From the NCBI GenBank assembly GCA_965203325.1, contig OZ241875.1:672001-736000 (forward strand): DNA of 64,000 bases, read 5' to 3'. This document shows positions 25,493 to 60,066 of the stretch, piece by piece (the first letter of the stretch is position 1; every line of letters begins with the position of its first letter). The notes under the pieces were generated by a model, which saw nothing but the letters and a program-made list of their open reading frames with translations, made no database searches and was not told the DNA's origin. The stretch is from a bacterium (GTDB lineage: Bacteria; UBA8248). The translations under genes were made by a program, and so were the position numbers.

Positions 25493-27652
25493 TTATGCTT
25501 CCAGAAAACAGCGAAGCGCTTCCAGTAGTTTTTCCCTGGACTTCAAAGAGGGGCGATAATCCATATGTCGAAAATGATTCTCCTCCATCTCGCTCAGGAG
25601 TCTCCGATAAATTCGGCCCATGATTCTGGCGGGAAGAAGGTTGCCTGTCTTCTCGCAACTCAAAGCTTCGTTCGCCCCCTCATAGTATTCACGTGCCCGA
25701 TGCGCCAGGAACCGAAGAAGGCTTAAAACCTCGGAAGTATCGTTTTTGTCTCTCAAATCGGATACCGTTACTCTATACTTCTCCATTTCGCTTCGCGGAA
25801 TATAAATGCGTCCCTGTTCCGCATCTTCCCATACGTCTCTCAAAATGTTCGTCATCTGTAGCGCTCTGCCCAAACAAACGGCGTAGTCTTTCGCAAAAAC
25901 TGATTTCGCCTCAAAGATGCCCAGACACGCCAGCCCTACTGCGGAAGCCACCTTGTCACAATAATTTTCAAGGTCCGATAAATTTTCAAATCGGCTCTCT
26001 TCCAAATCCATCGCCACGCCGTCACAAATCGCCTGGAAATGCTCCGGCGGCAAGTCGTATTTTCGCGACGCCCATGCGAGTTCCCCGATTATCGGGTGGG
26101 CTGGACTCTCCCCGCCCAACTGATCCAATGCCTCTTTCCACTCGCGCAACGAGATTGTTTTGCCAGATATTTCGCCTGGCTCATCGGCGATGTCGTCGGC
26201 CATGCGACAATACGCATAAACCGCCGTGATGGCGCGCCTTTTCTCCGCAGGAAGGCTGAAAAAAGACAGATAAAAATTCGACCGGCTCGCACGAATGAAC
26301 CAGCGGCAGTATGCACGGTTCAACTCTTCTTCGGCATGCAGATCCACACTGGATTCGAGTCGATAGACCGGGCGAAACGCCGCGAGCAACGATTGGGCCT
26401 TGTCCCGGCCATTCAAAAGCGGTGAACCCGCGCAGACGTTCCATTCCACACGGGAAATTGCGTCAAGCGCCGCAACGCCGCCGCGCCAAATCGCACGAAG
26501 TTCACGGCCCAATGCGCCGCGGGTTCGGTACAAAAGGGGCAAACCCTGCCTGAAGAGTCTTTTTGTTCTCTTTATCTGGAAAACCAGGAACGCGCGCAAT
26601 TGAGGCGTCGCCACATCTGCAAGCAAATCATCCTCGGAGACGGAGAATCCTTTCATCTCATCCTGAGGCATATAGACGATGCCGCGTTCGGCGTCTTCTT
26701 TCACATCTTGTAAGTGATTCGCAATCTGCAAGGCCGTGCAAATGGCGTCCGAGGCGCGAAATGCCTCTTCATCGCGTATCCCGTGCAGCATAAGAACGAT
26801 TCGCCCGACGGGATCCGCCGAGCGGCGGCAATAATCGAGCAAGGCTTCATAGTTCGGATACCGGAGGACTGTGACGTCTTGTTTGAATGCCGAGAGCAAA
26901 TCCAGAAATGGCTGTAAGGGCAAATCGAATTGTTGAAGCGTATGGGAAAGCGCTATGAACACGTCCGTATCTGCGATTCCCTTCTGGGCCGACACGAGTT
27001 TTTCTTCCCATTCATCGAGACGGTCGAGCCGCTCTTGTGTAGGTCTTGTCGTATCCGCGATATCATCGGCGCCCCTCGCGAATGCGTATACCGCGGCGAC
27101 GTGCGGCCTTATCTTCGCCGGCAACAACTTCGAGGCGACGGGAAAATTTTCGTAGTGGCCGACGACGATTCTCATGCAGGTATCATAAGCGGCGCTTAAG
27201 CCAGCCTCTGAGACGGATTTTGCCTCTTCACGCGAATCCCCTATTTCCTCGCCATTCATGAGAGATTCTATCAATCGCGCATCCGCAGGCAGGAAATCAA
27301 AATCCCCGAGCGAAGAAGGATGGACCCACTCGTGCTCCGCCACCCCCAAATTCTGAGTCACTCCGCTTTTCCACTCACAATCATAAAAGCGTAGGTGGAC
27401 GTCTCTGTCGGGATAGCTGTGACGGGTTTCCCAATGAAGAGAGCCAACGCGCACTTCGACCCCTAGTTCCTCGCATATCTCCCTTTGCAAGGCTTCCCGG
27501 GGGCTCTCACCATCCTTTATTTTACCGCCGGGAAATTCCCAATAACCCGGCATGTGTCCACCCTCAGGGCGCTGACAAATGAGAATGCGCCCTTCATGCC
27601 GGACAATCCCGGCGACGACGTTCAACTCCAAAGCGGCGGTTTCGCTCTTCAT
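25493..27652 (-). CDS. Fusion: NUDIX (MutT-like) + HpnC + HpnD squalene-synthase domains
   Basis: Intact Nudix box GKIKDGESPREALQREICEELGV. HpnC motifs HYENFPVAS / ARGADDIAD / NHLQDV; HpnD motifs SNFYLSF / CRMADDIAD / TNILRDV. One 719-aa frame. Confidence 0.9.
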   Translation of the reverse strand: MKSETAALELNVVAGIVRHEGRILICQRPEGGHMPGYWEFPGGKIKDGESPREALQREICEELGVEVRVGSLHWETRHSYPDRDVHLRFYDCEWKSGVTQNLGVAEHEWVHPSSLGDFDFLPADARLIESLMNGEEIGDSREEAKSVSEAGLSAAYDTCMRIVVGHYENFPVASKLLPAKIRPHVAAVYAFARGADDIADTTRPTQERLDRLDEWEEKLVSAQKGIADTDVFIALSHTLQQFDLPLQPFLDLLSAFKQDVTVLRYPNYEALLDYCRRSADPVGRIVLMLHGIRDEEAFRASDAICTALQIANHLQDVKEDAERGIVYMPQDEMKGFSVSEDDLLADVATPQLRAFLVFQIKRTKRLFRQGLPLLYRTRGALGRELRAIWRGGVAALDAISRVEWNVCAGSPLLNGRDKAQSLLAAFRPVYRLESSVDLHAEEELNRAYCRWFIRASRSNFYLSFFSLPAEKRRAITAVYAYCRMADDIADEPGEISGKTISLREWKEALDQLGGESPAHPIIGELAWASRKYDLPPEHFQAICDGVAMDLEESRFENLSDLENYCDKVASAVGLACLGIFEAKSVFAKDYAVCLGRALQMTNILRDVWEDAEQGRIYIPRSEMEKYRVTVSDLRDKNDTSEVLSLLRFLAHRAREYYEGANEALSCEKTGNLLPARIMGRIYRRLLSEMEENHFRHMDYRPSLKSREKLLEALRCFLEA

Positions 27653-30838: not shown

Positions 30839-31070
30839 CCTTCGCCTCACCCGTATGAATCAGGCGCCCGCTCCCGCGGGGTCGCCGAACCGCCCCGTTT
30901 CCGGGCCGGGCGGGCGGGTTCGCCGCGCGGGGAAAGGCGGGCAGTTGCGCGCAAATGCGGGGCTGCGAAAAAACTTTTTAATTCGATAAATATCTGAAAA
31001 TAATTCATTGTCTGCTTTATGTTATCCAGGCAACTATTTGAATAAATACGAAATATCACTTTTCTTTCTA

Positions 31071-31116
31071 TTCGATAAATCTCTAGGAATTTATCGAAAA
31101 ACCCCGTGAATTTATC
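31071..31116. repeat. TTCGATAAAT palindrome plus inverted copy of the 1953-1984 motif
   Basis: ttcgataaat-ctctagga-atttatcgaa (10-8-10 perfect IR); a further ttcgataaat at ~30982. Confidence 0.85.
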
Positions 31117-31589
31117 GTATTATCCAGAATATGAAAATTAAATCATTGTTTTCAAGCCAGTTATAAATTCCTTGAAATAAATGTAATCAAAACGCAAGCG
31201 GACTCATTACAACCCCGGAGCATTCCAGGGGGCGCGAGTCGTCGAAGACCGGTAAATCGTTCGTTGGCAGGGTGATAATACCACAAGGCTCAGAGGCAGT
31301 TGTTGGTATGGCACGGCGTATCCGATTCGGGTCGGCGAATTTTTGATGCTCATCACCCCATGAGAGAATGATTACCGGGGTGGCAGGCCGGGTAGGCGGA
31401 GGCATTGCTGCGCCCCGCCTGCCCGGCCGAATATTTTATGTGTCCTCCAGAATCCGGGCCGTTGGCATACAATCCACGAAGGAATGTCCGCCTATTTCGG
31501 CTTGGCCGTATTGTATTCGGCGGACGACCCGGAACGTCAGCATACGATGCGATAAAAACGAATGAAACAGAGAATCGGCGTCGTTCGAC

Positions 31590-31705
31590 CTGCGGACGGG
31601 TAGCGCGCAGCGCCTTGCCGCGGCAGGCGCTTCTCCGGTCGAGATGCAACTCGCCGGGCGCCGCCAATCGGCGGTCATTCGCAGGGACGACTCGCGAAAC
31701 AGCCC
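31590..31705 (+). pseudogene. Degenerate fragment of the Cre-like recombinase C-terminus
   Basis: Translates LRTGSAQRLAAAGASPVEMQLAGRRQSAVI versus LRVGGAQSLATAGASLVEMQIAGRWQSPVM in the intact gene; the DNA also shares cgcagggac.actcgcgaaacag. Confidence 0.75.
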
Positions 31706-31949
31706 ACTGCGGCGTGAACGAAAGAGGCTTTCGAGCTCTCGCCCGGGGAGCGGCGTCCTTCCTTTTTTTCCGCAGCGCCTCGCTGCACGTTCTCCGGCGA
31801 CCCTCGTTTTCCGGAAAACCCCCTTGATTTCAGGCTGAACCGATGAGCGATCCGCGCACGGACGCAGGCGCGGACTCTTCCCGGGTGTACCTTCCGCGCT
31901 AGAAACAACGATTGAACGGGCGCTCGTCCTTTCCTTATGTTCGCGCGCC

Positions 31950-32669
31950 ATGACCGCGTTCGACGACGATACCGGCACCCCGCTGGACGAGCGAATGCGC
32001 CGGAGCATTGCGCTCTGGCGCGCGCGCCGCGGGATGAGCGCGAGGCGCTTCGGGGTGGGTGCGCTGGGGATTCCCGGCTTCGTGGGCCTGCAGGCCCGGG
32101 GGCGGCCCCTGCGGGTCGACACGGCGGACCGGGTGCTCGCGTTCATGGGGTACCCGCCCCTGGGACCGCTCCTGCGGGCCGAGGTCGAGGCGTTTCTCGT
32201 GGTGAGCAGGACCAAGGTCTCGATCCTGGGCGAGGAGACCGTGGGGAATCCCTCCTTCGTGGGGAGGCTACGCGGGGGCGTTTCGCCGTATCTCAAGACC
32301 TTCGACCGGGTGCGCGCCTGGATGGCGGCCAACGCGACGGGAGAGGAGATCCGCGCCATACGCGAGAGGCTCGCGCACTTGCCCGACCCGTTCGACGGGA
32401 CGTGGGACGTCGCCGGGGAACCCGGGGCCGCGGGAGACGTCGATGAACTTGCGGAGGAGAACCACCTGGACACGCGGGAGGCGGCCGCCTGGCTCGGCCT
32501 CTCGCCCAAGACGCTCGAGCGCTACCGCGTGAGCGGAGAGGGGCCGGATTTTCTTCGCACCGGATACCGGGTGCGCTACCTGCTCGAAGACCTCGAGAAG
32601 TGGGCCTCCGCCCGGAGGTGGACTTCCACGTCCGAGGAGAGATCCGCCCGGAGAAAGAAGAGGCGGTAG
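31950..32669 (+). CDS. DNA-binding protein: two tandem phage-type HTH repeats plus C-terminal excisionase/AlpA-like HTH
   Basis: Repeats ...G.P.FV..L..G......T.DRV.A(F/W)M twice; LDTREAAAWLGLSPKTLERYRVSGEGPDF...VRY..EDLEKW. Confidence 0.75.
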   Translation: MTAFDDDTGTPLDERMRRSIALWRARRGMSARRFGVGALGIPGFVGLQARGRPLRVDTADRVLAFMGYPPLGPLLRAEVEAFLVVSRTKVSILGEETVGNPSFVGRLRGGVSPYLKTFDRVRAWMAANATGEEIRAIRERLAHLPDPFDGTWDVAGEPGAAGDVDELAEENHLDTREAAAWLGLSPKTLERYRVSGEGPDFLRTGYRVRYLLEDLEKWASARRWTSTSEERSARRKKRR

Positions 32670-32698
32670 AGAGATATTCGGGATTAGTCGGACGGACT

Positions 32699-33571
32699 TC
32701 ACCGCCCGTAGCGCAGCCTCGCCATCGCGCCCTGTTTCGCGAGTTGTCCCTGCGCGTAGCGCCCCGGCATGACCGGCGACTGCCAGCGCCCGGCAATCTG
32801 CATCTCGACCAGCGACGCCCCCGCCGTGGCCAGGCTCTGCGCGCCCCCCACGCGCAGGCTGTGCCCGCTGATGCGCCCCTCCACGCCCGCGGCCTTCCCC
32901 CACCGCGCGATGATGCTCCGGATGCTCCTCTCCGTCAGGCGCCCGGGCCGAAGCCGTCCCCCCTTGTACACGCCCCGGAAGAGCGCTCCCTCCTCGAGAC
33001 CCGCGCTCGCCAGCCAGGCCCGGACGCGCGTCACGGTCGGCTCGCCCAGAAACTGCACGACGCCATCGCCCTCCTGGTCCGTCTTCGAGCGGCGGATCAG
33101 CACCGTCTGCTCGTCCAGGTCCACGTCCTCGATGTCGAGCGCCTCGACCTCCGACACCCGGAGCAGGGCGTCGCTCGCCACCGCCACGATCGCCGCGTCG
33201 CGCAGACCGGCCAGGGTCCCCGTCCCCTCGGCCAGCGCCGCCGCCCGGTCCGCCTCCTCCCAGCGCACCCCCACCACCTGGCCCCGGCCCCGCTCTGCGG
33301 CCAGGCGCCTGAAGCCGGCCAGCACCCGCTCCGAGGCCGCCCCCACTGGGGAGGGCCGGCCGTTCAGCTTCGCCCGGAAGCGAAGCGCCGCGACCGCCAT
33401 CGCGGCCACGGCCGCCGAGTGCCCCCCCTCGTAGAGATCCCCCAGGTACGCCGCTATCCCGGCGTCGGTCTCGGGGTTTCCCGAGCGCTCGAACCTCCTG
33501 AGCGCCGTCTCGTACACTCGCCGCGTGTTCTCAGACATCGACGCCTTCGCCAGGTAGGCGGCCGTTTCCAT
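32699..33571 (-). CDS. Cre-like tyrosine recombinase
   Basis: Catalytic set LRVSE (R), RRSKTDQ (K), SGHSLRVG (HxxR), AGRW (W, as in Cre), GRY (Y); N-terminal 'SENTRRVY'. Confidence 0.93.
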   Translation of the reverse strand: METAAYLAKASMSENTRRVYETALRRFERSGNPETDAGIAAYLGDLYEGGHSAAVAAMAVAALRFRAKLNGRPSPVGAASERVLAGFRRLAAERGRGQVVGVRWEEADRAAALAEGTGTLAGLRDAAIVAVASDALLRVSEVEALDIEDVDLDEQTVLIRRSKTDQEGDGVVQFLGEPTVTRVRAWLASAGLEEGALFRGVYKGGRLRPGRLTERSIRSIIARWGKAAGVEGRISGHSLRVGGAQSLATAGASLVEMQIAGRWQSPVMPGRYAQGQLAKQGAMARLRYGR

Positions 33572-33703
33572 TCCCTGAGGCCGCCCGAGCGCCTCATTAC
33601 GCTCAAGGGCCTCGTCAAATACCAAGTATAGACGACGACGGGGAATTTCCACAAAAAAAGCCGTTTCGCAGGGGAATACCGGCGAAACGGCGGGTTTCTG
33701 GAG

Positions 33704-33904
33704 TCCGATAATTGACGTTATCGGAAAGTTAAACACCTCTCACGGCCATGTCAAGCGCAATTCCGGGGTCCCCGGAGGGGTTTCGGGCGCCGTTTTGCGC
33801 CTTCTTTCGCTCATCTTTCGCTCATGTGCGGCCCGAATGCCCCCCGAAACGGGTTTTTCGGCGGAAAACGGGGCTTCTGGGGGCCAATAACGTCAATTAG
33901 CGGA
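33704..33904. promoter_or_regulatory. Two inverted lox-like sites enclosing a sigma70 promoter (candidate invertible switch)
   Basis: Site 1 tccgataa-TTGACG-ttatcgga (33704-33725); site 2 gccaataa-CGTCAA-ttagcgga (33883-33904). Minus-strand TTGACA(33754-33749)-17 nt-TAACTT(33731-33726). Confidence 0.7.
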
Positions 33905-34016
33905 CACCAGCCCGGGTTCGAGGCGGCGCATACCGCAGGAATCCGCCTCTCGCGGAAAGACTCACGACCGGCTGCGTCAGCTTGAACCCGAAATCTCGGA
34001 ACAGGGGGCATTCCAA

Positions 34017-37000
34017 ATGAAGAACATTACACGGATCTCGATACTGCCGGCGGCGGCGTTCTGCAGCGCGGCCCGGCGGCGTGAAGTGCGCCCGGCCGGG
34101 GCGCGCACGCCGGCTCCCTCGACATCGGCGGGCTCCAGACGGGCTGACGCCCGCACCGGGCGCGCCCGCGCCCGCCGCCTCTCCCTCCTCCTCCCCGTCC
34201 TCGCGCTGCTGCTCGGCGCGCTCGGCCTGTTCGCCGCCGGGACGGCGGAGGCGGTCCCCGCCCAGCCGCAAGGATTCACGCTCACGCCGGGCAATCAGGT
34301 GCTCATGGCGACGTGGAATGCGGTCACGGATTGGGGCGGACAGAACGCGGACGGTTACAGCCTGCGCTGGAGGGTGAAGGAGCCCGTAGGCAGTTGGTCC
34401 ACCGTTGTCCAGCGCTCCACCTCACAAACTACGTACACGATCACCGGGCTGGTCAACGGCACGGAGTACGAGGTCGAACTCTGGTCGCGCGCCAGCGTTG
34501 GGCAAAACCGGCAGGTGAGCGCGGCCGTGACGGCGACCGGCACGCCCGTGGCGGCGCAGAACAACGCCAACCTGTCCGCCCTGACGGCGGCGACCCACAC
34601 GAGCGCGACGGGCACGTTCACGTCGCTGACGCTCACGCCCTCGACCTTCGCGGCGACCACCACGTCCTACACGGCGTCGGTGTTGAACGCGCGGACGCAC
34701 CTGAAGCTCACCCCGACGGTGGCCGCCACCGGCGCCACGGTGAAGGTGGGCAAGCAGGGGACCACGCTGGCCACGGTCACCAGCGGCTCGGCGAGCGCCG
34801 CCATCGCGCTCTCGGTGGGCGCGAACGCCATCACGGTCGAGGTCACCGCCGCGGACAACACCACGAAGAAGACCTACACCGTGACGGTGACGCGGGCCTC
34901 CTCCTCCGTCTGGTCGGCGACGTTGACGCCGGTGGCAGTCTCAGGGGGAGTCGGCTGCAATAGCGAGACCCTATGCAATACGGCACTGACCGACAACAGC
35001 TTTACGGTCGGCGGCACGAACTACCGTTTTAACACTGTTTTCAACGCCAGTTCGGGTTTGCAAGTAGGCATCACTCCAATTGGAGCAAACGCTGAACTTG
35101 CGGCACTGAAGTTCTGTGTCGGCACAACAGAATATTCGTTTAACCTAGGCGCCACTATTTTACTTTCGAACGACAACCCCGGCTGGACCGCCGGCACCCC
35201 GGTCTCCCTCAGAATCGCCTCGTCCTGCGCGCAGCAGACCACGACGCCGACCCCGACGCAGTCCACCGACGCGACCCTGTCCGGCCTGACGGCGACCCAG
35301 GCCACGAGCGCCTCGGGCCCGTTCTCGGCGCTGAGCATCGGCAACTTCGCCTCGGGCACCACGACCTACGCGGCGTCGGTGGCCAATTCCATAACCCACG
35401 TGAAGCTGACCCCGGCGGTCACCGACTCCGGCGCCACGGTGAAGGTCGGCAAGGGCACGAGCCTGACCACGGTCGCGAGCGGCACGGCGAGCGGCGCTAT
35501 CCCGCTCTCGGTGGGCGCGAACGCCATCACGGTCGAGGTCACCGCCCAGGACGGCACCACGACGCGGACCTACACCGTGACGGTGACGCGCGCGCAGGCG
35601 CAGACGCAGGCCCCCGCCCCCGTCGTCCCGACCGGGCGGGGGGAGACCGTCTGGTCCGCCACCCTGACGGCGCAGAATGTGGTGCCCTCCGTCGTCGTTG
35701 GTTGCACAGGGTCCGGGTCTTCAAGTTGCGCTCTGACGAGCGTGCTCACGGACGACGACTTCGGCCTCTTCGGGAAGACGTTTACGATCACGCAAATTCA
35801 GCAGACGTCTGCGGGGGCCCTCGATATCGGCTTCGACCAGTCAATCTCGACGCAGACGGCGAGGCGCCTGACGCTGCATGTCGGCGACCGCGAGTTTCCG
35901 CTGGCGGAGGCGACTTATTCGTCGGGCAACACTACGGCGACCTGGACCAGCTCCGGCCTGACCTGGTCGGCGAGCCAGCAGGTGCCGCTGCGCCTGACCC
36001 TCGGGCCGCGCTGGAGCGGCGTGGCCTACGAGGGCGGCGGGCTGCTGCCCGGCCCGACCGGGGGCAAGGAGCTGCTGGTCGCCGAGGACGGCTCGGCCAC
36101 CTTCGGGGTCAAGCTGACCCATGCGCCCACGGCGAACGTGACCATCCGGCTGTACAAGTTCGCTCCCGCTGCGATTCACGGGAACGTGAACGCCGTCACC
36201 ATCAGCCCGAAGGAGCTGACCTTCACGCCGGCCAACTACGGCACGGCGCAGACGGTGACCGTCACCGGGGTGCCGGACGGCAACGCCGCCCACGAGCACC
36301 TGTACATCCTGGCCGCGTCGTCGAGCGCGGACGCGAACTACGCGCTTCAGGACGGGCACGAGGCGCTCTTCGTCACCGTGACCGACGGCGCAGGCGCGGT
36401 GAAGGTGGGGCTCTCGCGCGGCGCGGCGCGCGAGTCGGGCGACGGCACGGCCACGAATGCGCCCGTGACGGTGTGGCTCAACCGCGCGTCGACCTCCCAG
36501 GTGCGGGTGACCTACGCGACGGCGCCCGACACCTCCGCGCCGTCGAACAAGCGGGCGACGGCGGGCTCGGACTACACGCACGTCTCCGGCACGCTCGTCT
36601 TCTCGCCGGGCCAGACGCGCAAGACGGTGCAGGTCCGGATCCTCGACGACAGCGTCGAGGATTCGGGGGAGAGCTTCCGCTTCGTGCTGTCGAACGTGCA
36701 GGGGGCGACGCTGGAGCAGGGCTACGGCCGTGCGACTATGGTCATCCTGAACGACGAGGCGCAGATCGACGGGCTGTCGGTCGAGGGCGCGCCGGGCGCG
36801 GGCGGGCCGTGGGCGAAGCTCGACATCGGCACGTTCGCGCCGGAGACGGCGGACTACGCGGTGACGGTGCCGCACGGGACGACGCACGCGCGGGTGACGC
36901 CGGAGACGGCGGACGAGGACCTGCTGCTCTGGGCGGGCAGCGGCACGGGGCTGGCGTCGGTGCGGAGCGGCCAGGCGGGCAGCACGGTGGCGCTCGCGGT

Positions 37001-39485
37001 CGGCGAGAACGTGCTGATGGTGCAGACGCGGGCGGCGACCGGCAAGCGGCAGACCTACCGGGTGACGGTGACGCGGCAGGCGCGCCCCGGGGTCGCGGTG
37101 TCGCTCTCGGCCACGCCGAACCCGGTGGGCGAGGGCTCGCCGGTCACGGTGCGGGCGACGCTGGCGGAGGCGCTGGCGCAGGCGGTGACGATCCCGCTGC
37201 GGACGACGCGGGGCACGTCGGAGGCCGGGGACCACGGGTCTCTCGCGTCGATCGCGATTCCCGCCGGCTTCACGTCGGCCACGGGCACGGTGTCGACGGC
37301 CGAGGACGGCGACGGGGACGACGAGACGTTCACGGTGGCGCTGGGGAGCCTCCCTGCGGGCCTGACCGCGGGCGCCGCGTCCTCGGTGCGGGTGACGATC
37401 ACCGACAACGGGCGGCAGGCGCCGGATCCGCTGACGGCGCGGCTCAGGGGCGCGGTCGCGGAGCATGACGGGGAGACGCCGTTCATGCTGGAGCTGGTGC
37501 TGAGCGAATCGCTCGATTCGGGGAGCCGGTGGCCTTCGGCTGCGTCGTTCGCGGTCAAGGGCGGGAGCGTGGAGAGCGTCCGGCGGTTCCGGCCGTACCG
37601 GTACCAGGTCCACGTCAAGCCGAAGTCGTGGAAGGACGTGACGGTCACGCTGGCGGGCGGGCGCGCCTGTAGCGAAGAGGGCGCGATCTGCACGGCCGAC
37701 GGGAGGTCGGTGTCGAACACGTCGACGATGACCGTGGGCGGCCCGGTGCGGATCCGGATCGCGGGCGCCAGGGCGAAGGAAGGCAAGAACGCATCGCTCG
37801 ACTTCGCGGTGACGCTCAACCGCGCGGCAGGGCATGAGGTCTCGGTGGACTACGCGACCGAGGACGACACGGCGGCGGCGGGGTCGGACTACACGGCCAC
37901 GTCGGGCACATTGACCTTCGCGGCCGGCGAAACGGCGAAGACGGTCTCGGTTCCGGTCCTCGACGACGCTATCGACGAGGGCAAGGAGGTCATGCGGCTG
38001 CTGCTCTCGAACCCGAAGGGGGCGTATCTCAGGAACGTCCACACCCGGGCGCGGGGGGTCATCACGAACGACGACCCGCTGCAAAGGATGTGGCTCGCGC
38101 GCTTCGGGCGCACGGCGGCGGGCCACGTCGCCGAGGCGATTGACGGACGCCTGTCGGGCGGCGCCGCCGCGGGCGTCGTGCTGGGCGGCCACAGCCTCTC
38201 CGGCGGGGCGGAGCGCGAGGCTATCGAGTCGCGCCTCGCCGAGGCCCTGCTTGAGGAGAGGGAGGCCCGGCTCGGGCGCGGCGGGGAGGCGCCGGCATCC
38301 CCGGTGCGCGAGGTCGCGATGTCCGATCTCCTGCTCGCGAGTTCGTTTCACATGGCCTCGTCCGGCGGCGGGGACGCGCCGGGGGGGCTCTGGTCGCTGT
38401 GGGGCCGGGGCGCGCGCTCCTCGTTCGAGGGCGCCGAGGGCGATCTCTCGCTGGAGGGCGACGTGACGACGGCGACCGTGGGCTTCGACTACGAGCGGGC
38501 GCGCTGGCTGGTGGGCGTGGCGCTCTCGCGAAGCGCGGGCGACGGCTCGTACAAGGCGGGCGGCGCGTGCGATACGGGCTGCGCGGGCGAGGTGGAGAGT
38601 ACGCTGACGGGTGTCTACCCCTACGCGCGCTACCGTGTGAGCGGGACGTTCTCGCTCTGGGGCGCTGTGGGCCACGGGCAGGGGGAGATGACGCTCACGC
38701 CCGGGGGGTCGTCCCCGGTGGAGGCCGACGTGGCGATGGGCATGGCGGCGGCGGGGGCGCGCGGGGTCGTTCTGCCCGCGCGCGAGGCGGGCGGGTTCGA
38801 GCTCGCGCTCCGCGCGGACGTCCTGGTGACGAACACGCGCTCGGACGCTGCGGCGGGCCTCGCGGAGACCGAAGCGCAGACGAGCCGCGTGCGCCTCGTG
38901 CTGGAGGGTTCGCGCTCGCTCAGGTTCGGCGAAGGCCTGCTGACGCCCTCGCTGGAGATAGGGTTCCGGAACGATTCGGGCGACGCGGAGACGGGCGGCG
39001 GGGTGGAGGCCGGCGGCTCGGTCCGCTGGGCCTCGGGGGCCCTGACGACGGAGGTGCGCGCGCGCGGCCTGCTCTCCCACGGCGCCGGCGGTTATGAGGA
39101 ATGGGGCGTGAGCGCCTCGGTGGAATATGCTCCGGGCTCCGGGGGACGGGGCCTCACGCTTCGGGCGGGATCCTCGTGGGGCGCCTCCGCCGGCGGTGCG
39201 GAGCGGCTCTGGTCGCAGGCGGCGGGCCTGACGCCTGCCGGTGGGTTCGAGCCGGGCGCCGCTGGCTTCGAGGCCGAGGCGGCCTGGGGCCTGGACGCCC
39301 CCCGGGGGCTGCTGACGCCCTATACGGGCGTGGCGGTCTCGGGGAACGCAGAGACCTGGCGCGCGGGCGCGCGGTGGAAGCCCGGGGCGGCCACGGAGGT
39401 GAGCCTCGAGGCGAGCCTCACCGAACAGGCGGGCGGCGGGAGACCAGAAGGCGGCCTCCTGCTCAGAGGCTCGAAGCGGTGGTAG
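34017..39485 (+). CDS. Large surface adhesin/autotransporter-like protein (FN3, cadherin-like beta-sandwich x3, Calx-beta x2, C-terminal beta-barrel)
   Basis: Signal-like LLLPVLALLLGALGLFAAGTAEA; YTITGLVNGTEYEV; TYTVTVTRA repeats; AGSDY...SGTL.F..G.T.KTV.V..LDD; amphipathic barrel ending in W. Confidence 0.85.
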   Translation: MKNITRISILPAAAFCSAARRREVRPAGARTPAPSTSAGSRRADARTGRARARRLSLLLPVLALLLGALGLFAAGTAEAVPAQPQGFTLTPGNQVLMATWNAVTDWGGQNADGYSLRWRVKEPVGSWSTVVQRSTSQTTYTITGLVNGTEYEVELWSRASVGQNRQVSAAVTATGTPVAAQNNANLSALTAATHTSATGTFTSLTLTPSTFAATTTSYTASVLNARTHLKLTPTVAATGATVKVGKQGTTLATVTSGSASAAIALSVGANAITVEVTAADNTTKKTYTVTVTRASSSVWSATLTPVAVSGGVGCNSETLCNTALTDNSFTVGGTNYRFNTVFNASSGLQVGITPIGANAELAALKFCVGTTEYSFNLGATILLSNDNPGWTAGTPVSLRIASSCAQQTTTPTPTQSTDATLSGLTATQATSASGPFSALSIGNFASGTTTYAASVANSITHVKLTPAVTDSGATVKVGKGTSLTTVASGTASGAIPLSVGANAITVEVTAQDGTTTRTYTVTVTRAQAQTQAPAPVVPTGRGETVWSATLTAQNVVPSVVVGCTGSGSSSCALTSVLTDDDFGLFGKTFTITQIQQTSAGALDIGFDQSISTQTARRLTLHVGDREFPLAEATYSSGNTTATWTSSGLTWSASQQVPLRLTLGPRWSGVAYEGGGLLPGPTGGKELLVAEDGSATFGVKLTHAPTANVTIRLYKFAPAAIHGNVNAVTISPKELTFTPANYGTAQTVTVTGVPDGNAAHEHLYILAASSSADANYALQDGHEALFVTVTDGAGAVKVGLSRGAARESGDGTATNAPVTVWLNRASTSQVRVTYATAPDTSAPSNKRATAGSDYTHVSGTLVFSPGQTRKTVQVRILDDSVEDSGESFRFVLSNVQGATLEQGYGRATMVILNDEAQIDGLSVEGAPGAGGPWAKLDIGTFAPETADYAVTVPHGTTHARVTPETADEDLLLWAGSGTGLASVRSGQAGSTVALAVGENVLMVQTRAATGKRQTYRVTVTRQARPGVAVSLSATPNPVGEGSPVTVRATLAEALAQAVTIPLRTTRGTSEAGDHGSLASIAIPAGFTSATGTVSTAEDGDGDDETFTVALGSLPAGLTAGAASSVRVTITDNGRQAPDPLTARLRGAVAEHDGETPFMLELVLSESLDSGSRWPSAASFAVKGGSVESVRRFRPYRYQVHVKPKSWKDVTVTLAGGRACSEEGAICTADGRSVSNTSTMTVGGPVRIRIAGARAKEGKNASLDFAVTLNRAAGHEVSVDYATEDDTAAAGSDYTATSGTLTFAAGETAKTVSVPVLDDAIDEGKEVMRLLLSNPKGAYLRNVHTRARGVITNDDPLQRMWLARFGRTAAGHVAEAIDGRLSGGAAAGVVLGGHSLSGGAEREAIESRLAEALLEEREARLGRGGEAPASPVREVAMSDLLLASSFHMASSGGGDAPGGLWSLWGRGARSSFEGAEGDLSLEGDVTTATVGFDYERARWLVGVALSRSAGDGSYKAGGACDTGCAGEVESTLTGVYPYARYRVSGTFSLWGAVGHGQGEMTLTPGGSSPVEADVAMGMAAAGARGVVLPAREAGGFELALRADVLVTNTRSDAAAGLAETEAQTSRVRLVLEGSRSLRFGEGLLTPSLEIGFRNDSGDAETGGGVEAGGSVRWASGALTTEVRARGLLSHGAGGYEEWGVSASVEYAPGSGGRGLTLRAGSSWGASAGGAERLWSQAAGLTPAGGFEPGAAGFEAEAAWGLDAPRGLLTPYTGVAVSGNAETWRAGARWKPGAATEVSLEASLTEQAGGGRPEGGLLLRGSKRW

Positions 39486-40017
39486 GGGCGGACCGGGGGG
39501 AGCGCAGGCCGTTCCTCCCGGCCCGCTTCGTCGCGATCCCCCTCCCGGCAGGTCGTCTCGCCGGCAGGCGGCGGGAGGGGCGCGCGTCCCGCTCTCCCCG
39601 CGTGTTTTCAGAGGGTGGGGGGTTTCCGTAGGCCGTGAAAGCTCAGTATCCTGTTGATATTATTGAGAAAGAATCCTTACTTCCTAGTTCGTTTGGAATC
39701 CATGATCTGCGATATGTAATCAAAGCGGAAGCGGGCGAATTACAACTCTTGGGTATCTCACCGTGCTCGTGTCCGTATGCGTTCAGTGTAAGTGTTCATC
39801 CAAGCCGTGATGGAAGCACCCAAATAGCGGTAGTTCGGTGGCTGTCTGAACGTAGCTGGTCCGGCCTAATTCTTCGGTACCACCCAAGTCCGCAGAATAT
39901 TTGGGCAATTTCGGTTCATGGATGGCATTCCGACATCGACTTTCTTCTCGTAGAGGTCACCGTCAACTCGTCTCTGTTTGGCTCTGAGGCCTAATCCGTC
40001 ACGGTTTGGTTGAACGA

Positions 40018-54710: not shown

Positions 54711-54987
54711 CCCGAAGCGCCTAAGGGCGGCTAGCGGCGGATTCCTGGGAACGAACGACAGGGGAATTTTCGCCGGAGAGAATGGCGAGCGGGAGCCGCC
54801 GCGGCGATTGAGCGGACAGAGCGAGTGGCAAGAGGGAGTGAGGGTGTCGGAGCTTGCGCCTGGATTTACAAGCGGCGGACGCACGGGGCGCTGCAACTTG
54901 CGCTTTTCATCACAAGCAGACGAACGACACGGGAAGCAACGGGCCGCGCCGCCGGGCGACGACGACGCGACCCGAGGAGTGTTCGCA

Positions 54988-55947
54988 TCAGGCGGCCACG
55001 CGTTGCACGGTGATGCCGAGCGCTCTGGCCTTGTCGACGAGGTTGTCGGTGATGCCCGAGCCGGGGAACGCGATCACGCCCTTGGGGAGGAGGGAGAGCA
55101 GCTCGTCGTTGCGCCGGAAGGGAGCGGCCCGGCCGTGTGCATCCCAGTCGGGCTTGCAGACGATCTGGTGGACGCCGTTCCGCTCGGCCCAGCCGGCTGC
55201 AATCTTCTCGGCGCCGGGGCCGCCGCCGTGGACGAGGACGACGTCGGCGTACTTGGCCTTGACCTTGTCGAGATGCGCGATGATTTTGCCCGCGTCGTTC
55301 GCCTCCTTGCCTCCCGCGACGGCGACGAGGGTTCCCTGGGGGAGGTGGGCGGTGTTCTCGCGGTCCTTTTTCGCGCGCTGGAAGTCACGCGCCTCGATCA
55401 CCGCCGATGTGAGCTTGCCGGTCTGCGAGACGTGCGATCCTCGCCGGGGCCGCCATACCTCGCCGGTCTCGACGCGGTAGGCCTCTGCGGCCGTGTCGCG
55501 CAGTCCTTCGAACGCGTCGCGGCGGGCGGTGAGATTCTCGGCCCGGTCGGTGGCGAGTTCGAGTTCGCGGGAGCGGATCTCGGAGCCGTCCTGTTCGCGC
55601 TGCAGTTCACGGATGCCGGGGATGAGCTTGTCGGCGGCGCGGTCGAGCCGCTGTGTCTGGGCGTCGAGGGTGTTGACGAAGCCCCACAGGAGACTCGCCC
55701 GCTCGTCGGCCAGTTGCGTGCCGTCGGGCGCGGCCTCGGCGAGCAGGTGGAATGCCTTGAGGACGGCGGCGGTGGACTCCGCTTCGCCCCACACGGGGCG
55801 GTTGTCGAACTCGTCAGGGCCGGGGGTCGCGCCGAAGAGGGCGGCCTGTTCGCAGACCATGGCGGTGAAGGATTCGTTCTGCGCTTCGATGTTGTCAACC
55901 TCGTGCATGATGCTCTCCTTGTGGTCGTGTGTCGCGGTGGCAGTCAT
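54988..55947 (-). CDS. DUF2493 / YspA-like SLOG-domain protein
   Basis: VAVAGG, LVHGGGPGAEKIA..WA, PDW..HGRAAPFRRNDELL, FPGSGIT. Confidence 0.85.
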   Translation of the reverse strand: MTATATHDHKESIMHEVDNIEAQNESFTAMVCEQAALFGATPGPDEFDNRPVWGEAESTAAVLKAFHLLAEAAPDGTQLADERASLLWGFVNTLDAQTQRLDRAADKLIPGIRELQREQDGSEIRSRELELATDRAENLTARRDAFEGLRDTAAEAYRVETGEVWRPRRGSHVSQTGKLTSAVIEARDFQRAKKDRENTAHLPQGTLVAVAGGKEANDAGKIIAHLDKVKAKYADVVLVHGGGPGAEKIAAGWAERNGVHQIVCKPDWDAHGRAAPFRRNDELLSLLPKGVIAFPGSGITDNLVDKARALGITVQRVAA

Positions 55948-55977
55948 CGTTCACTCCTTTCAGTGGTTGGGTTGTCC

Positions 55978-56352
55978 TCAAGCGAGGGGATGGTTGAATT
56001 CGGGAAGAGCGTAGCCACGCTCGTTGCGCCCCACTTCTTTCGGCATCTCGTCGAGATACCTGGCGGCCCACTCGGCGGCGCGCGCGAGTACGTCGCCGTG
56101 GCACGGGAGGGGATGGCAGTGGCAGCCGAGCTTGCAGCCTTGCAGGTCGGCGAGTTCGTAGAGGTCCTGCTCTTCGCGCCGGATTCTTTCCCACAGCCAT
56201 CGCCGGTATTTCTCGATGACCTCGCTGCGGGAGCCGTCCTGGCCGATGCGGAAGGGGTTTCCCCACTTGGTCATGCGGTCGATCCTGACCAGCAATCCGC
56301 CGCCGAATTGAGGCGCAACATAGTCGTTCAAGTTCACCACGGTGGTTTCCAT
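55978..56352 (-). CDS. DUF4326-family protein
   Basis: IDRMTKWGNPF, VIEKYRRWL, LGCHCHPLPCHGDVL. Confidence 0.88.
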   Translation of the reverse strand: METTVVNLNDYVAPQFGGGLLVRIDRMTKWGNPFRIGQDGSRSEVIEKYRRWLWERIRREEQDLYELADLQGCKLGCHCHPLPCHGDVLARAAEWAARYLDEMPKEVGRNERGYALPEFNHPLA

Positions 56353-56387
56353 GCCTTTCTCCTTTCCAGAGAGTTAACGGATTCGCT

Positions 56388-56578
56388 TCTTAGCGCCCCA
56401 TTTTCAGCACGTGGTAGGCGTGGGCGTCAGGGGCGGTTTTCAGTCTTTTTTCACCCGGAGGGCGCGCAGCGGAAAAAATCCACGCTTCACCGATTTTTTC
56501 TGAAAAAAGATGCTTTTGCGTTTTTTGCAAAAGCACCCTTGACCCCGCGCCGTGCGTGCTAAAATGGGAGCGCTAAGA
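56388..56578. promoter_or_regulatory. Frpo-like single-stranded-DNA promoter (long imperfect hairpin)
   Basis: Arms tcttagcgc-cccatttt-cagcacg...gtcagggg and cccttgac...cgtgct-aaaatggg-agcgctaaga pair. The 3' arm carries TTGACC and TGcTAAAAT; nested A/T-rich hairpins inside. Confidence 0.65.
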
Positions 56579-56874
56579 GAGAGAGGGTAGTACCGCCACC
56601 GGGACACAAGAGCTTTTGGTGTTTCACGATGAAGGCGAAGCTCATCGGGAAACAGTCTCTCATGCTGCGGAAAGGGTCATTTCGGGCCGTTTTTTCCGGC
56701 CCGAAATTCCCGCAGCGGGGGGTGGACTGAGCCACTATCCAGAACATGGAATGAGTGCAGGTGCATGCCGGTTTTCCGGGAACATGGTTCATCGTTCACG
56801 GAACCGGAGGATTTACCGGGTGTTCCCGGTAGACGAGAGAGCAGGCAGGGCGGACTTCCTCTGGATAAGGAGCA

Positions 56875-56909
56875 TAAGAAAAGGGCTGACGCCGAAGCGC
56901 CAGCCCCTT
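56875..56909 (-). terminator. Intrinsic terminator after ssb
   Basis: gggctg...cagccc stem with a U-rich tail on the minus strand. Confidence 0.55.
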
Positions 56910-56916
56910 GAAGCGC

Positions 56917-57369
56917 TCAAAATGGAATTTCTTCGCCCACAACGCCGGCGGGCACCGCCACGTCCGCCGTCTCGGGGTGCGCGCCGTTGCCGTTACCGTT
57001 GCCATTGCCGTTCCCGTTCACCTTGTCGAGGAACTGCACGCGCCCGCCCGGCGCGATGAGGATCTCGGTCGAGAACCGGTCCGAGTCTTCCCCGTCCTTC
57101 TTCCAGCGCCTGGTCTGGAGCTTGCCCGCGACGTAGATCAGGCGGCCCTTCTTCGCGTGCTTCTCGAACATATCCACCAGGCCGGGCTGGAAGGTCACGA
57201 CCCGGTGCCACTCGGTCTTGTCCACCCGCTCGCCGCTCTGCTTGTCGACGTAGCCCTCGTCGGTCGCGATCGAGAGGTTCGCCACGCGCCCCCCGCTCGT
57301 GAGGTGGTTGACGGTGACGTCGGCGCCGAGACGCCCGATCAGTTCCGCTCTGTTGAGTCCGAATGCCAT
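56917..57369 (-). CDS. ssb: Single-stranded DNA-binding protein
   Basis: LNRAELIGRLGAD, TEWHRVV, KGRLIYVAGKLQTRRW, C-terminal EEIPF; AAGGAG RBS. Confidence 0.95.
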   Translation of the reverse strand: MAFGLNRAELIGRLGADVTVNHLTSGGRVANLSIATDEGYVDKQSGERVDKTEWHRVVTFQPGLVDMFEKHAKKGRLIYVAGKLQTRRWKKDGEDSDRFSTEILIAPGGRVQFLDKVNGNGNGNGNGNGAHPETADVAVPAGVVGEEIPF

Positions 57370-57445
57370 GATGATTCTCCTTCGTGGTGTGGATGATGAA
57401 GTGGAAGGGGCCGGGAAGCCTCTCTCCCCGATCCCCCGATCTGTC

Positions 57446-57577
57446 CTATTCCCTCCTGAACTCCTCCTCGCCCCCCGCCTCGTCGCGAATCTTGCGGATC
57501 GTGTACGCGTCGAGTCCGAGTTCTGCGAGCAGTTCGTCCGTGGTGGGAACATCGACGTCGAAGTCGTTCTCGTACAT
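57446..57577 (-). CDS. Small acidic protein (43 aa)
   Basis: AGGAGG RBS, then MYENDFDVDVPTTDELLAELGLDAYTIRKIRDEAGGEEEFRRE*; below the ORF-track cut-off. Confidence 0.55.
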   Translation of the reverse strand: MYENDFDVDVPTTDELLAELGLDAYTIRKIRDEAGGEEEFRRE

Positions 57578-58338
57578 GGCCAAGCCTCCTGTCAGGGTTG
57601 TCGCCGGCGGCGGGAGCGGGAGACCGTCTCCCTCTCCCCTGCCGGGCCTTTGCCCGGCTCCCCGCTTCGCTCCACCTCTCCCCCGCGGAGGTTCAAGTCC
57701 GGTGAGGACCGCCAGCGGACCTTGAGCGGCCTCCGTCCCGACCGGGTAGCTCCGGAGAGAGACGGGAGCGGAAGCCCACCCGGGCCGGCGCGCGGTACGG
57801 GGTTCGGATGAGATGAGGGATGGGCGAACGGAGACGTATCGAGTGGGGTGGGGTTCGGGGCGGCGACGTTCCTGTCACCGCCGGTGAGGTTTATCGTCGG
57901 TGATCTAGTGCCGCAGACCGGGGTGTCGGCGTTGATGCTGCCGGGGCAGGGTTGCCGGGTTAGCTCCGCGCCGCCTGGCGGGTCGGGATTATGCTCGGCG
58001 CCTTCGTCACCGATGGCGGGACTGCTCTGCCGGGTTGCGCCCGCCCCGTGTGGTCGTATCCGGACTCGCGGCCAGACCCCCCGCCCGCCGTCCTGCGCGG
58101 CGCGCCCGGGTCCGGTTGGCGGCACAGCGGGGTGGCCTTCCCCCCGCTTCCGGCGAGGGCGAGAAGGAACCCGGAGGGTTTCGGGACGGCGATACGTATC
58201 CGACGGGCGGCGGCGGCGAGGCTGGGCGGCGACCCCCCGGCGGCAGGCCGGCTGCGCAGCAGGGCGACGCTATTCCTGCGCCGCCCCCCCGCCAGACGTA
58301 TACAGGCCGGCGGCACGTGCAGGCGCGGCCGCCGAGAC

Positions 58339-59148
58339 TCACTCCCAGGCAGCAAGGCTGGACATGATGGGCTCATCCACCACGACCTCGACCTGATCCC
58401 GAGAGAGCTTGGCGAAGGCGAGGCACATGGCGACCTCCTCCCAGGAGTCGAGGGGGCCGTGCTCCTCGCCCGTGGCTAGTTCGACCACGGTGAAGCGCGG
58501 CGGATAGACGGGCATCCCCTTGTGCTCTCCCGATGAGTGATACGATCGGCGCGCGCAGGGAGTACATCTCACCCCTGCGTCCGCATGGGCGCCGCAGTCG
58601 ACGCAAAGCGACCGTGCCCGCCTGTCGCGATAGCGCTTCCTGCTGGCGGTGTTCTTGCGCGGACGGCGCTTTACGTCCCTTGCGGCGCACGAAGCGCACG
58701 TCGAAGCCTCATCGACGACTTCCGCACCACACCGACCGCATCGCCCCCCGGCGCGTCTTTTGGCGTAGAGTTTCCTCTCCGCCGCCCGCCGCGATTCCCG
58801 GCAGGGTTCGCAGACGGCGCCAGCCTCGACGGGCTCGCGTCCGCAGCGCGGGCACAAGCCGGCCTCCACCCGCTCGCGCCTGCGCTTCCTCGCCCTCTCG
58901 CGCGCCATGCGGCGGCGGCTCTCGGGGTCGCGTCCGCCATATGGGGCTCCCCCCGCTCGGGCTTCGGCGTATCGGGCGCGTCGGGTCTCCCGGTCCCTCT
59001 CTCCGCATGGCTCGCACAGACTGCGCCCGGGCGCGGGAGGAATCTTTCCGCACCGGGGACACATGCCCCGCGCGAGGCGGTCGGCGGTGCGTTTGCGGTG
59101 GCGCTCGCGCTCATAAGCGCGTCGTCTTTCCGGGTTCTTGTGAGGCAT
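58339..59148 (-). CDS. Arg-rich protein with four CxxC-x(10-11)-CxxC zinc-finger repeats
   Basis: CPRC..CEPC, CPRC..CEPC, CGRC..CASC, CVDC..CTPC; GAGG RBS before MPHKN. Confidence 0.75.
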   Translation of the reverse strand: MPHKNPERRRAYERERHRKRTADRLARGMCPRCGKIPPAPGRSLCEPCGERDRETRRARYAEARAGGAPYGGRDPESRRRMARERARKRRRERVEAGLCPRCGREPVEAGAVCEPCRESRRAAERKLYAKRRAGGRCGRCGAEVVDEASTCASCAARDVKRRPRKNTASRKRYRDRRARSLCVDCGAHADAGVRCTPCARRSYHSSGEHKGMPVYPPRFTVVELATGEEHGPLDSWEEVAMCLAFAKLSRDQVEVVVDEPIMSSLAAWE

Positions 59149-59239
59149 GGGATTTTCCTCATGCGTTGGAGAAGTCGTACAGACGGCGCCGGGCCGGCGA
59201 GACGTCTTGCGGGCGGAAGTCCTCCCGGGTGGGACTTCC

Positions 59240-59536
59240 TCACCGGGTGAGCATCCGGGCCCACACGAGGTGCTCGCCCCAGAGCTGCAGCCCGCTGCCG
59301 GGGACCCGGAGCCCCGTGCAGACGATGAGTTCGTCCCGCGCGGGCCGCATCTCGCGTACGGCTTTCCGCGAGGCCGTAGCTCTCTTCGTCTTGCGCCTCC
59401 CGCTCTCCCTGTCGGGCACGGGCCTGATGTCGCCATCGGCGGACTTGTAGCGTTTCACTTCGTAGCGTTCGTCCGCCAGGCCGCGGGTGAAGAGATGGGT
59501 GAGGAAAGTACTCGCTTCGGGTCCGGGTTTTCGCAT
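59240..59536 (-). CDS. Hypothetical protein
   Basis: AAGGAGG RBS, 98 aa, same orientation as neighbours. Confidence 0.5.
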   Translation of the reverse strand: MRKPGPEASTFLTHLFTRGLADERYEVKRYKSADGDIRPVPDRESGRRKTKRATASRKAVREMRPARDELIVCTGLRVPGSGLQLWGEHLVWARMLTR

Positions 59537-59724
59537 CGCGCGCCTCCTTGGGTGGGTGGATGATGGCGGCGGAGGCGAGCCTCGAACGCGAGAAGACTCC
59601 CTCCCGGCTCCCCTCCGCCGCCCCCTCCCGGTCGGACTCGGCCTCCCGGTGGCGCAGAGCCACCCTCAGCGGGAAAGACGGCGGTCCGTTCGTTCAGGGT
59701 GGTCTTCGTTCGGCCCGGGGGCTT

Positions 59725-60066
59725 CTACGGGAAGGGGATGTCCGGGTCCTGGCCGAACAGCTCCTGCTCCTCCAGCTCGCGGCGCCAGGCGTAGCGTCCC
59801 GTCCGGGCGGACCACTCGAAGTCCTCTTCCTTCCCGTCGGGCAGTTCGTAGCGATGGAAGGCGGACCAGTCCCCGTGGCGGAACCCCCGCCACAGGACGC
59901 AGGAGAGAGCCGTGAGGAGGCACCAGAGAGCCGCACAGGCCCAGACGGCCCACAGGGGGCGGAGGCCGATACCTGCCGCGAGAGACAGGATTGTGGCGAG
60001 GAGTGCCAGAGCGGGTCCCGCGAAGACGAGGGCACGGGTGTATCGGGATGGTTTTCGGTTACTCAT
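59725..60066 (-). CDS. Hypothetical membrane protein
   Basis: GGAGG RBS; two hydrophobic helices and an acidic tail. Confidence 0.55.
   Translation of the reverse strand: MSNRKPSRYTRALVFAGPALALLATILSLAAGIGLRPLWAVWACAALWCLLTALSCVLWRGFRHGDWSAFHRYELPDGKEEDFEWSARTGRYAWRRELEEQELFGQDPDIPFP

Follow-up and report, generated by a model that had tools for sequence, protein, structure and literature searches.

Genetic switches in which a tyrosine recombinase inverts a promoter are already known, with fimS, the Bacteroides Tsr switches, RecV and mpl as examples. Phase variation of this type is best known from gut and pathogenic bacteria. The subject here is a short piece of DNA from a bacterium of the lineage UBA8248, at positions 33698-33910 of a 64,000-nucleotide stretch of GenBank assembly GCA_965203325.1 (contig OZ241875.1, 672,001 to 736,000). 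This whole stretch is called the window below, and all positions refer to it. The piece lies between the gene of a Cre-like tyrosine recombinase and the gene of a surface protein of 1822 amino acids (aa). Judged from sequence comparisons, it is highly probable that 33698-33910 is a working-type DNA inversion switch (inverton), served by a recombinase of the Cre-like kind.

The fimS element of E. coli, with FimB and FimE, is laid out in a similar way: a tyrosine recombinase gene sits beside a short invertible segment that holds the promoter of a surface structure. It has 9-bp repeats, and needs IHF and Lrp. The present case differs from it: the window recombinase is not a FimB/FimE family member, lox-like sites are involved, and the genome has 16 switches where fimS is a single one.

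Among the enzymes of the Bacteroides switches, Mpi is a serine recombinase and the Tsr proteins are locally encoded tyrosine recombinases. There is one repeat consensus per recombinase, and the RecV repeats are unrelated. We know of no report from Bacteroides or C. difficile of locus-specific crossover sequences with constant arms. The likeness to the loci described here is that many surface promoters flip independently, and that one recombinase can act on several of them in trans (for the RecV switches of Clostridioides difficile such as cwpV, see PMC2784873). The phyla and habitats, however, are unrelated.

The mpl genes (P35) of Mycoplasma penetrans form a large lipoprotein family, each member behind a private invertible promoter, and tyrosine recombinases are again involved. 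The repeats of these switches are short, at 12 bp. The mpl recombinases differ from the present one in lineage, their sites lack a lox-like architecture, and to our knowledge no diversification of spacers has been described for them.

Cre itself has its role in plasmid-prophage maintenance of phage P1, and engineered heterospecific lox variants are known. As in those variants, it is apparently a match in the central 6 bp that decides which sites pair up at the present loci. Cre/loxP of P1 and the other Cre-type systems (Dre, Vika and the set treated in PMC10250229) also resemble the present loci in a site of about 34 bp, which can here be read as inverted arms around an 8-bp centre, with a GATA adjoining this centre. 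The differences are considerable. Identity to Cre is low, the protein has 291 aa here versus 343, and the symmetry of the arms is confined to their inner 7-8 bp. In addition, the natural role here would be chromosomal promoter inversion at many loci, and 20 natural spacer variants are seen.

No DNA-inversion switch in sponge symbionts was found in the literature searched, nor a Cre-type enzyme with lox-like sites that flips promoters, nor a set of many loci whose arms stay constant while each locus has crossover sequences of its own that co-vary. In the DeepInverton survey (PMC11602134), the main text contains zero mentions of Nitrospin-, sponge, tyrosine recombinase, spacer or autotransporter; its supplementary tables could list such loci.

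The two sites and the other features are listed in Table 1. The core of the left site reads TCCGATAA-TTGACG-TTATCGGA and that of the right site GCCAATAA-CGTCAA-TTAGCGGA, both in an 8-6-8 arrangement. A first-pass annotation of this DNA had described these cores as inverted copies that agree at 19 of 22 positions, with spacers that are reverse complements, and the sequence bears this out. It had also put about 170 bp between them. The gap is indeed short, and the exact value is different: 157 bp lie between the cores, which are 179 bp apart from start to start.

The pair stands out from its surroundings. When the 22-mer is searched for with up to 3 mismatches, only these two sites are found in the window, and two matches occurred in 0 of 100 shuffles. 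The inverted repeat can be extended to 27 nucleotides (nt) at 89% complementarity (33698-33724 versus 33884-33910), which leaves 159 nt between the arms. Perfect symmetry of the individual sites covers the 8-6-8 part only. In the longer arms of 13-14 bp, the pattern CTGG.G.CC..TA is common to three of the four, and the fourth is overlapped by a promoter -10 element.

The sites can also be read as 13-8-13. The arms then end in GATA next to the 8-bp centre, a motif that PMC10250229 reports for active Cre-type sites. The conserved inner arm TCCGATA adjoins the 8-bp centre in each site. As in an inverton, the inverted repeats flank a promoter and lie between a recombinase gene and the gene that would be regulated.

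The recombinase scores 68.6 bits against the Pfam family Phage_integrase (PF00589, cut-off 27.1), over residues 175-329 of the long open reading frame (ORF). Its best solved relative is Cre, with an E-value of 5e-13 over Cre residues 92-338. The 17 best PDB sequences are all Cre or its engineered variant Tre (5e-13 to 9e-11), and the next is a XerC-like protein at 1e-8. All seven aligned active-site residues are identical to those of Cre: R173 and E176 (in the motif LLRVSE), K201 (RSKT), H289 and R292 (GHSLRVG), W315 (AGRW), a Trp specific to Cre, and Y324 (GRY).

None of the NCBIfam equivalog models is reached by this protein, and all of them stay far below their cut-offs. This goes for the FimB/FimE-type DNA invertase models NF007370 and NF007371 (21.3 bits, cut-offs 221 and 222), and for XerA (67.3 of 220), XerC (48.5 of 335), XerD (36.1 of 330) and integron integrase (17.5 of 265). 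Given that it scores closest to Cre and is below every NCBIfam cut-off, "Cre-like" is a fair name, and the recombinase belongs to no curated family. The gene had at first been started at GTG 33736, which would overlap the left site; one of the two ATG codons given in Table 1 is the most likely start.

Evidence for inversion comes from the rest of the genome, which is one contig of 4.39 Mb. A DNA search with window positions 31000-40000, and then with parts of this region, finds 16 loci that hold the segment between the sites. At 13 of these it lies as it does in the window. At the other three, near 2.078, 2.673 and 3.870 Mb, the segment is inverted and both flanks keep their direction. The breakpoints of these flipped copies fall inside the sites. 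In the alignment of the copy at 2.078 Mb, for example, 33698-33905 is forward, and 32689-33724 and 33884-34270 are reversed. The flipped segments are 94-95% identical to that of the window.

A census of sites in the whole genome gives a matching picture. With at most one mismatch per arm there are 36 sites. Of these, 32 are the two sites of the 16 switches, and the remaining 4 equal the count in a reversed-genome control.

The comparison was widened to 46 loci, consisting of 15 of the 16 from this genome and 31 others. To be included, a locus needed to have the leader motif, which is conserved, as well as two paired sites at a distance of 150-200 bp. The extra loci came from 30 that encode relatives of the recombinase in genomes of other species, and from same-genus loci that hold switch DNA. 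Of 22 further genomes in the genus, 11 have this DNA; of the 18 more distant genomes searched, 0 have it. Outside the set are two chance matches to the leader motif without a site nearby, and loci with a leader that the search pattern did not pick up, among them the own locus near 1.827 Mb (matched spacers, OFF) and loci L013 and L016 (both matched). Six of the 46 are flipped, or ON, and 40 are OFF. Homologous loci in the opposite orientation, which the first-pass annotation had named as a check, thus do exist.

The second line of evidence lies in the spacers. At the 16 loci of this genome there are eight left spacers: TTGACG, TTGCCG, TTGATG, TTACTG, TTGTCG, TTGCTG, TTGCCA and TTGCTA. At 15 of these loci the spacers of the two sites are exact reverse complements of each other, and at the remaining one they are off by one base. 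The arms, for their part, are nearly constant. Across the 46 loci there are 20 different 6-bp spacers, and the match is exact at 45. Shuffling the partners 10,000 times gives a mean of 3.0 matches and a maximum of 10.

For Cre, FLP and lambda Int, active partner sites are expected to have an identical strand-swap region. Matching spacers are also presumed to be necessary for recombination in the parts of PMC10250229 and PMC11260471 that deal with this. The covariation is what strand exchange by a tyrosine recombinase would leave behind as its signature. The outer arms, conversely, keep a fixed difference between left and right at all 16 own loci (TCCGATAA versus TCCGCTAA, read inward). This means that homogenisation is limited to the crossover region, and does not extend over whole sites. 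Together, the two orientations and the covarying spacers uphold the proposal of an invertible promoter switch with a Cre-like recombinase.

Two other explanations can be held against these data. The sites might be operators or resolution sites (for dimer resolution, res or dif-like), which regulate or resolve without inversion. That each site is itself palindromic and that the pair lies between divergent genes would fit this, and the first-pass annotation had offered a resolution site with autoregulation as its alternative. However, this leaves the flipped copies unexplained, and also the asymmetric spacers, which co-vary and are always inverted, where resolution needs them as direct repeats. 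We regard it as very improbable.

The segment could also be a miniature transposable element with 27-bp terminal inverted repeats, inserted either way around at each locus. It is after all a short, multi-copy unit bounded by inverted repeats. But the flanks on the terminator side and on the leader side are homologous at 16 of 16 loci, so the whole unit was duplicated and not the segment alone. It is implausible that separate insertions would hit the identical base in either orientation, and transposon ends have no reason to co-vary in a central 6 bp only, with 20 values. We consider this origin extremely improbable.

Which way the switch points depends on its promoter. As the first-pass annotation had it, TTGACA-17-TAACTT is present on the minus strand and faces the recombinase gene, with the -35 at 33754-33749 and the -10 at 33731-33726. 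The -10 overlaps the outer half of the left site's inner arm. The consensus of the family is TTGACA-16-TGT-TATATT, and TTGACA is kept in 51 of 51 switch copies from this and related genomes, two further rows having been left out as unrelated matches. In the paralogues L005 and L002 a promoter scan scores 11 of 12 plus a TG motif. The putative window promoter, weak as it is, is the same element as the family promoter. A perfect palindrome, CCGGGGTCCCCGG, lies 9 bp upstream of its -35 (33763-33775) and is kept in most copies; it is a possible operator.

A scan of the DNA between the right site and 34200 finds no promoter-like site, and the independent adhesin promoter that could have contradicted the first-pass annotation is thus not seen up to there. 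Since the promoter faces left and nothing promoter-like follows on the right, the window copy can be labelled OFF for the 1822-aa gene, as had been proposed. This part of the proposal is supported, and the label follows the predicted direction of the promoter. Flipping would aim the promoter at the gene.

The leftward transcript would soon meet a terminator-like hairpin, located between the left site and the recombinase gene. The 86 nt of 33640-33725 on the minus strand fold at -35.6 kcal/mol (z -7.1), which 0 of 200 shuffles matched. A hairpin of -10 kcal/mol or lower directly before a run of T7-8 is found at 13 of the 15 own-genome loci analysed, and at 25 of 46 loci overall. The terminator scan did not call the window hairpin because its loop is longer than the 3-8 nt that the scan allows.

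Inside the segment there is a smaller hairpin, antiparallel to the promoter. Its T-rich tail is the tandem repeat TCTTTCGCTCA x2, which the first-pass annotation had already noticed, and which is present at 33803-33824. The scan calls a terminator here in two paralogues (L005, L002), and by our own criterion 29 of 48 segments qualify. In the window copy, where the tail is weaker, the scan makes no call. The hairpin is a candidate for a terminator, and might keep transcripts from running on into the cargo gene while the switch is OFF. The TCTTTCGCTCA / TTTCGCTCA repeats could equally be the binding site of a regulator.

The outer terminator matters for how the recombinase is controlled. The first-pass annotation saw a self-latching switch, in which the OFF-state promoter transcribes the recombinase, and a flip to ON ends its expression, so that the state is locked. 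In favour of this, the window promoter is indeed directed at the recombinase gene, and read-through of the terminator may occur. On the other side, a -20 kcal/mol hairpin with U7 stands between promoter and gene, and downstream of it, before the gene, there is a separate promoter-like site. The latter was read by eye; at the equivalent place in paralogue L005 the scan calls TTGGAA-16-TATACT (9 of 12).

The neighbouring recombinases of the 16 switches also bear on the latch. Five are intact, one has a TAG stop, seven carry the same internal deletion and three switches have none. With so few intact in cis, the switches as a family can do without a recombinase in cis that is transcribed from the switch's own promoter. 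A latch should furthermore trap switches in ON, yet 5 of 5 with an intact neighbour are OFF, as are 40 of the 46 loci. The latch therefore does not hold up well, and we regard it as improbable. Presumably most switches must be flipped in trans.

It was also considered whether ON is tied to the lack of an intact neighbouring recombinase, as seen at 3 of 3 ON loci in this genome. A hypergeometric estimate by hand count gives p of about 0.3, which is not significant. The link is contradicted by locus L019 of a related genome, which is ON and has a neighbouring recombinase that aligns over near full length. This idea was rejected.

A protein search finds six near-full-length recombinase copies in the genome and many fragments. 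The six are 100, 94, 91, 94, 88 and 81% identical, and it is the 91% copy that has the single TAG. The deletion shared by seven paralogous copies joins 32732 to 33395 and removes about 660 bp, at the short direct repeat CGCCATCGCG. Either a deleted element was copied around the genome, or the deletion recurs.

This decay raises the question of whether the switch is a fossil, in a family that once inverted. Inversion would then have ceased in the window copy, or throughout this genome's members of the family, and the flipped paralogues would be old. The weakened -10 and inner terminator tail of the window copy would agree with that, as would the deletion held in common by seven copies. The flipped state is moreover known from a comparison among loci, and not within a population. 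Against it, the window recombinase is intact with all catalytic residues, and the window spacers match perfectly. Spacers match at 15 of 16 loci though they differ between loci that are only 3-5% diverged, which needs recent exchange or selection. There is a small chance that the fossil reading is right.

A quick maximum-likelihood tree of the 46 segments speaks to the same question. The six ON copies need five changes on it, where shuffling gives a mean of 5.8. The window copy belongs to a four-member clade (Shimodaira-Hasegawa-like approximate likelihood ratio support of 92) with two ON copies, two OFF copies and three different spacers.

Several points weigh against an active inversion switch. 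Strongly supported branches of the tree force one orientation change only, which makes recurrent flipping likely, and not proven. The comparison of the two orientations is one between loci and between genomes, and not one inside a population at a given locus. Relative to the family consensus, the window has a weaker -10 (TAACTT or TTAACT), and a scan of this copy for promoters and terminators finds 0 sites at threshold. The ON and OFF labels depend on a predicted promoter. Both terminators are predictions too, with the pass rates given above (25 of 46 for the outer, 29 of 48 for the inner). Finally, 1 of the 46 loci has a spacer mismatch.

Metagenome data do not change this balance. The window DNA is matched in 20 sequencing runs from 9 studies, many labelled sponge metagenome. 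Logan contigs of four runs over 32700-35200 measure 66-374 nt, none spans the switch, and there is no strand-changing joint among them. The repeat family shatters these contigs, so the pieces are uninformative on whether both orientations coexist. Exact scans of metagenome contigs with the 24-nt left site and the 22-nt promoter core of the window gave 0 stretches.

The inversion switch would work as follows. Two inverted 34-bp lox-like sites flank a 157-bp segment, and the middle 6 bp of each 8-bp centre would be the crossover region. A Cre-like recombinase, either the neighbour or one of the four other intact paralogues acting in trans, would pair the sites and exchange strands in the spacers, which flips the segment. 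The segment carries one outward promoter of the sigma-70 type, with its -10 abutting a site, and a small antiparallel terminator-like hairpin. In the present state, the promoter would fire leftward, and its transcript would pass through the left site into the intrinsic terminator that shields the recombinase gene; the 1822-aa gene would be OFF. After inversion, the promoter would read through the right site and the conserved leader into the surface protein gene, which would then be ON. The layout, the two orientations among paralogous and related loci, the covarying spacers and the conserved catalytic residues are shown by the sequences. Which recombinase acts where, and that segments still flip in living populations, are things we infer, as are the activities of promoter and terminators.

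Table 1 Features of the switch and its neighbourhood, in window coordinates.
Feature	Position	Strand	Details
239-aa protein with C-terminal HTH_17 (excisionase/MerR-type) domain	31950..32669	+	Pfam HTH_17, E-value 1.3e-7; convergent with the recombinase gene
Cre-like tyrosine recombinase gene	32699..33574	-	291 aa from ATG 33574; alternative start ATG 33541; without internal stop codon
Candidate recombinase promoter	33625..33654	-	TTGTGG-18-TATACT, downstream of the outer terminator; putative, read by eye
Terminator-like hairpin (outer)	33653..33691	-	GCCGUUUCGC..GCGAAACGGC, then U7; hairpin alone -20.0 kcal/mol, 10+2 bp
Left lox-like site	33698..33731	.	34 bp; core 33704-33725; 6-bp spacer TTGACG 33712-33717
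Outward promoter at left end of segment	33726..33754	-	-35 TTGACA; -10 TAACTT (17 nt) or TTAACT (16 nt)
Invertible segment between site cores	33726..33882	.	Flipped versus both flanks in 3/16 paralogous loci
Small inner hairpin	33786..33824	+	GGCGC-CGTTTT-GCGCC, T-rich tail, antiparallel to promoter
Right lox-like site	33877..33910	.	34 bp; core 33883-33904; spacer CGTCAA 33891-33896, reverse complement of left spacer
Leader between switch and cargo gene	33911..34016	+	First ~60 nt conserved at 16/16 switches regardless of the following gene
Cargo gene	34017..39485	+	1822-aa secreted repeat protein; long N-terminal signal region; fn3, 3 Cadherin-like, 2 Calx-beta (Pfam)

The C-terminus of the cargo protein is probably a barrel of the autotransporter type. 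An ESM Atlas feature search with residues 1440-1822 (383 aa) leads to autotransporter beta-domain clusters, at a score of 0.97 and for 28 of 30 matches, which is to be taken as a lead only. Pfam (including PF03797) and PDB sequence searches with the last 461 aa gave nothing relevant. A single-sequence AlphaFold model of the C-terminus had a predicted local distance difference test score of 34.8 and was not used. ARAGORN calls a tRNA-Ala(CGC) at 38499-38570, inside the 1822-aa ORF. The coding sequence is GC-rich there, and the call is most likely false.

The genes behind the other switches fall into two kinds. Nine switches precede large proteins that share the long signal region, with lengths of 1822, 1694, 1695, 1644, 1418 and 1145 aa; in the three remaining cases the protein is divided over two ORFs. 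The other seven precede proteins of 316-1068 aa which begin with MMFKDK..YAFALAAVFALTLAGCGGGGG. By our own reading this is a lipoprotein signal with a lipobox, and Pfam finds no family in these seven putative lipoprotein genes. The leader RNA has no Rfam match (33400-34200, E-values up to 1), and RNAalifold on 45 leaders gives no consensus fold.

The gene of the HTH_17 (helix-turn-helix) protein accompanies the recombinase in most copies, and the region 31245-32702 is conserved at 91-95% in the paralogous copies. Judged by its domain, this protein may possibly be a regulator or a directionality factor. Upstream of its gene, in the opposite orientation, there is a remnant of the 3' end of a recombinase gene (31575-31702, plus strand). 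This decayed piece is 60% identical to residues 289-323, and the catalytic Trp and Tyr have been lost. With the 3' end of the intact gene (32732-32858) it forms a 127-bp, 72% inverted repeat around the HTH gene, an arrangement that recurs at other copies.

The block at 31500-39500 has a GC content of 63-77%, its immediate surroundings 40-57%, and the whole genome 60.4%. A direct repeat of about 33 nt (GTAATCAAAACG.AAGCGGA...ATTACAAC), at 31181-31213 and 39714-39746, brackets the entire high-GC block from the HTH gene to the surface protein gene. It has some 32 copies in the genome, often in same-strand series 5-9 kb apart, where they flank other copies of the element. The repeat is unlike the lox-like arms. 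It may serve for attachment, or mark the boundaries of cassettes. There is also an AT-rich sequence of about 40 nt where the block begins on the left (31085-31132), with about 25 scattered near-identical copies in the genome.

Two further multi-copy modules, at ~54950-57680 and ~58230-59880, lie 15-20 kb to the right of the switch. Each has about 10 copies, and both are 88-93% identical to a region of a related genome. With such modules around the switch, its neighbourhood is a mosaic of repeats. For the nearest relative, G012, one-to-one orthology could not be set from a comparison of two 20-kb regions, as the neighbourhoods are mosaics of multi-copy modules. Elsewhere in the window, a 719-aa ORF at 25493-27652 (minus strand) combines an N-terminal NUDIX domain with two squalene/phytoene synthase domains, beside an amine-oxidase-type enzyme that uses flavin adenine dinucleotide.

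The family extends beyond this genus. Metagenome-assembled genomes with relatives of the recombinase are titled bacterium, Nitrospinota, Latescibacterota, Binatia and Poribacteria. Three Latescibacterota loci encode a recombinase that is 53-55% identical, and have the arm TCCGATAA paired at about 280 bp, with matched spacers ATCCAC, TCCAAC and ATCAAC. The neighbouring gene was scanned in two of the three (L022 and L023). There, at ~2485-2800, the switch of about 280 bp lies between the recombinase gene and the gene of a TonB-dependent receptor. Record titles (Poribacteria, Latescibacterota) and the matching runs point to a sponge association of the phyla that bear the module.

This invites a wider reading. 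There would be at least 16 independent flip switches, served by one Cre-like family, with private crossover sequences preventing recombination between loci, and the module would have spread horizontally among unrelated sponge-associated phyla. We give this about even chances. On the private-spacer part of it, crossover sequences would evolve fast with both sides in step, as a natural counterpart of engineered incompatible lox variants. By that analogy, the spacers might insulate the switches from each other. The idea is weakened by the sharing of left spacers within the genome, where TTGACG occurs at four loci, TTGCCG at three, and TTGATG, TTGCTG and TTGCCA at two each.

What appears here is a large and orderly phase-variation system in uncultured marine bacteria, with DNA in runs labelled sponge metagenome. 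The proteins it controls likely face host cells and phages. They are lipoproteins and giant adhesin-like proteins of probable autotransporter type, to which a second phylum adds TonB-dependent receptors. As for the window itself, most cells of the population that was assembled probably do not express the 1822-aa gene.

The family also comes with a collection, made by nature, of Cre-type enzymes and about 20 matched site pairs, which can be tried as orthogonal recombination tools. In addition, constant arms with private crossover sequences offer a testable account of how one type of recombinase can serve many switches safely. If that account is true, a single enzyme type would shuffle the repertoire of adhesins and lipoproteins combinatorially, and leave the genome unscrambled.

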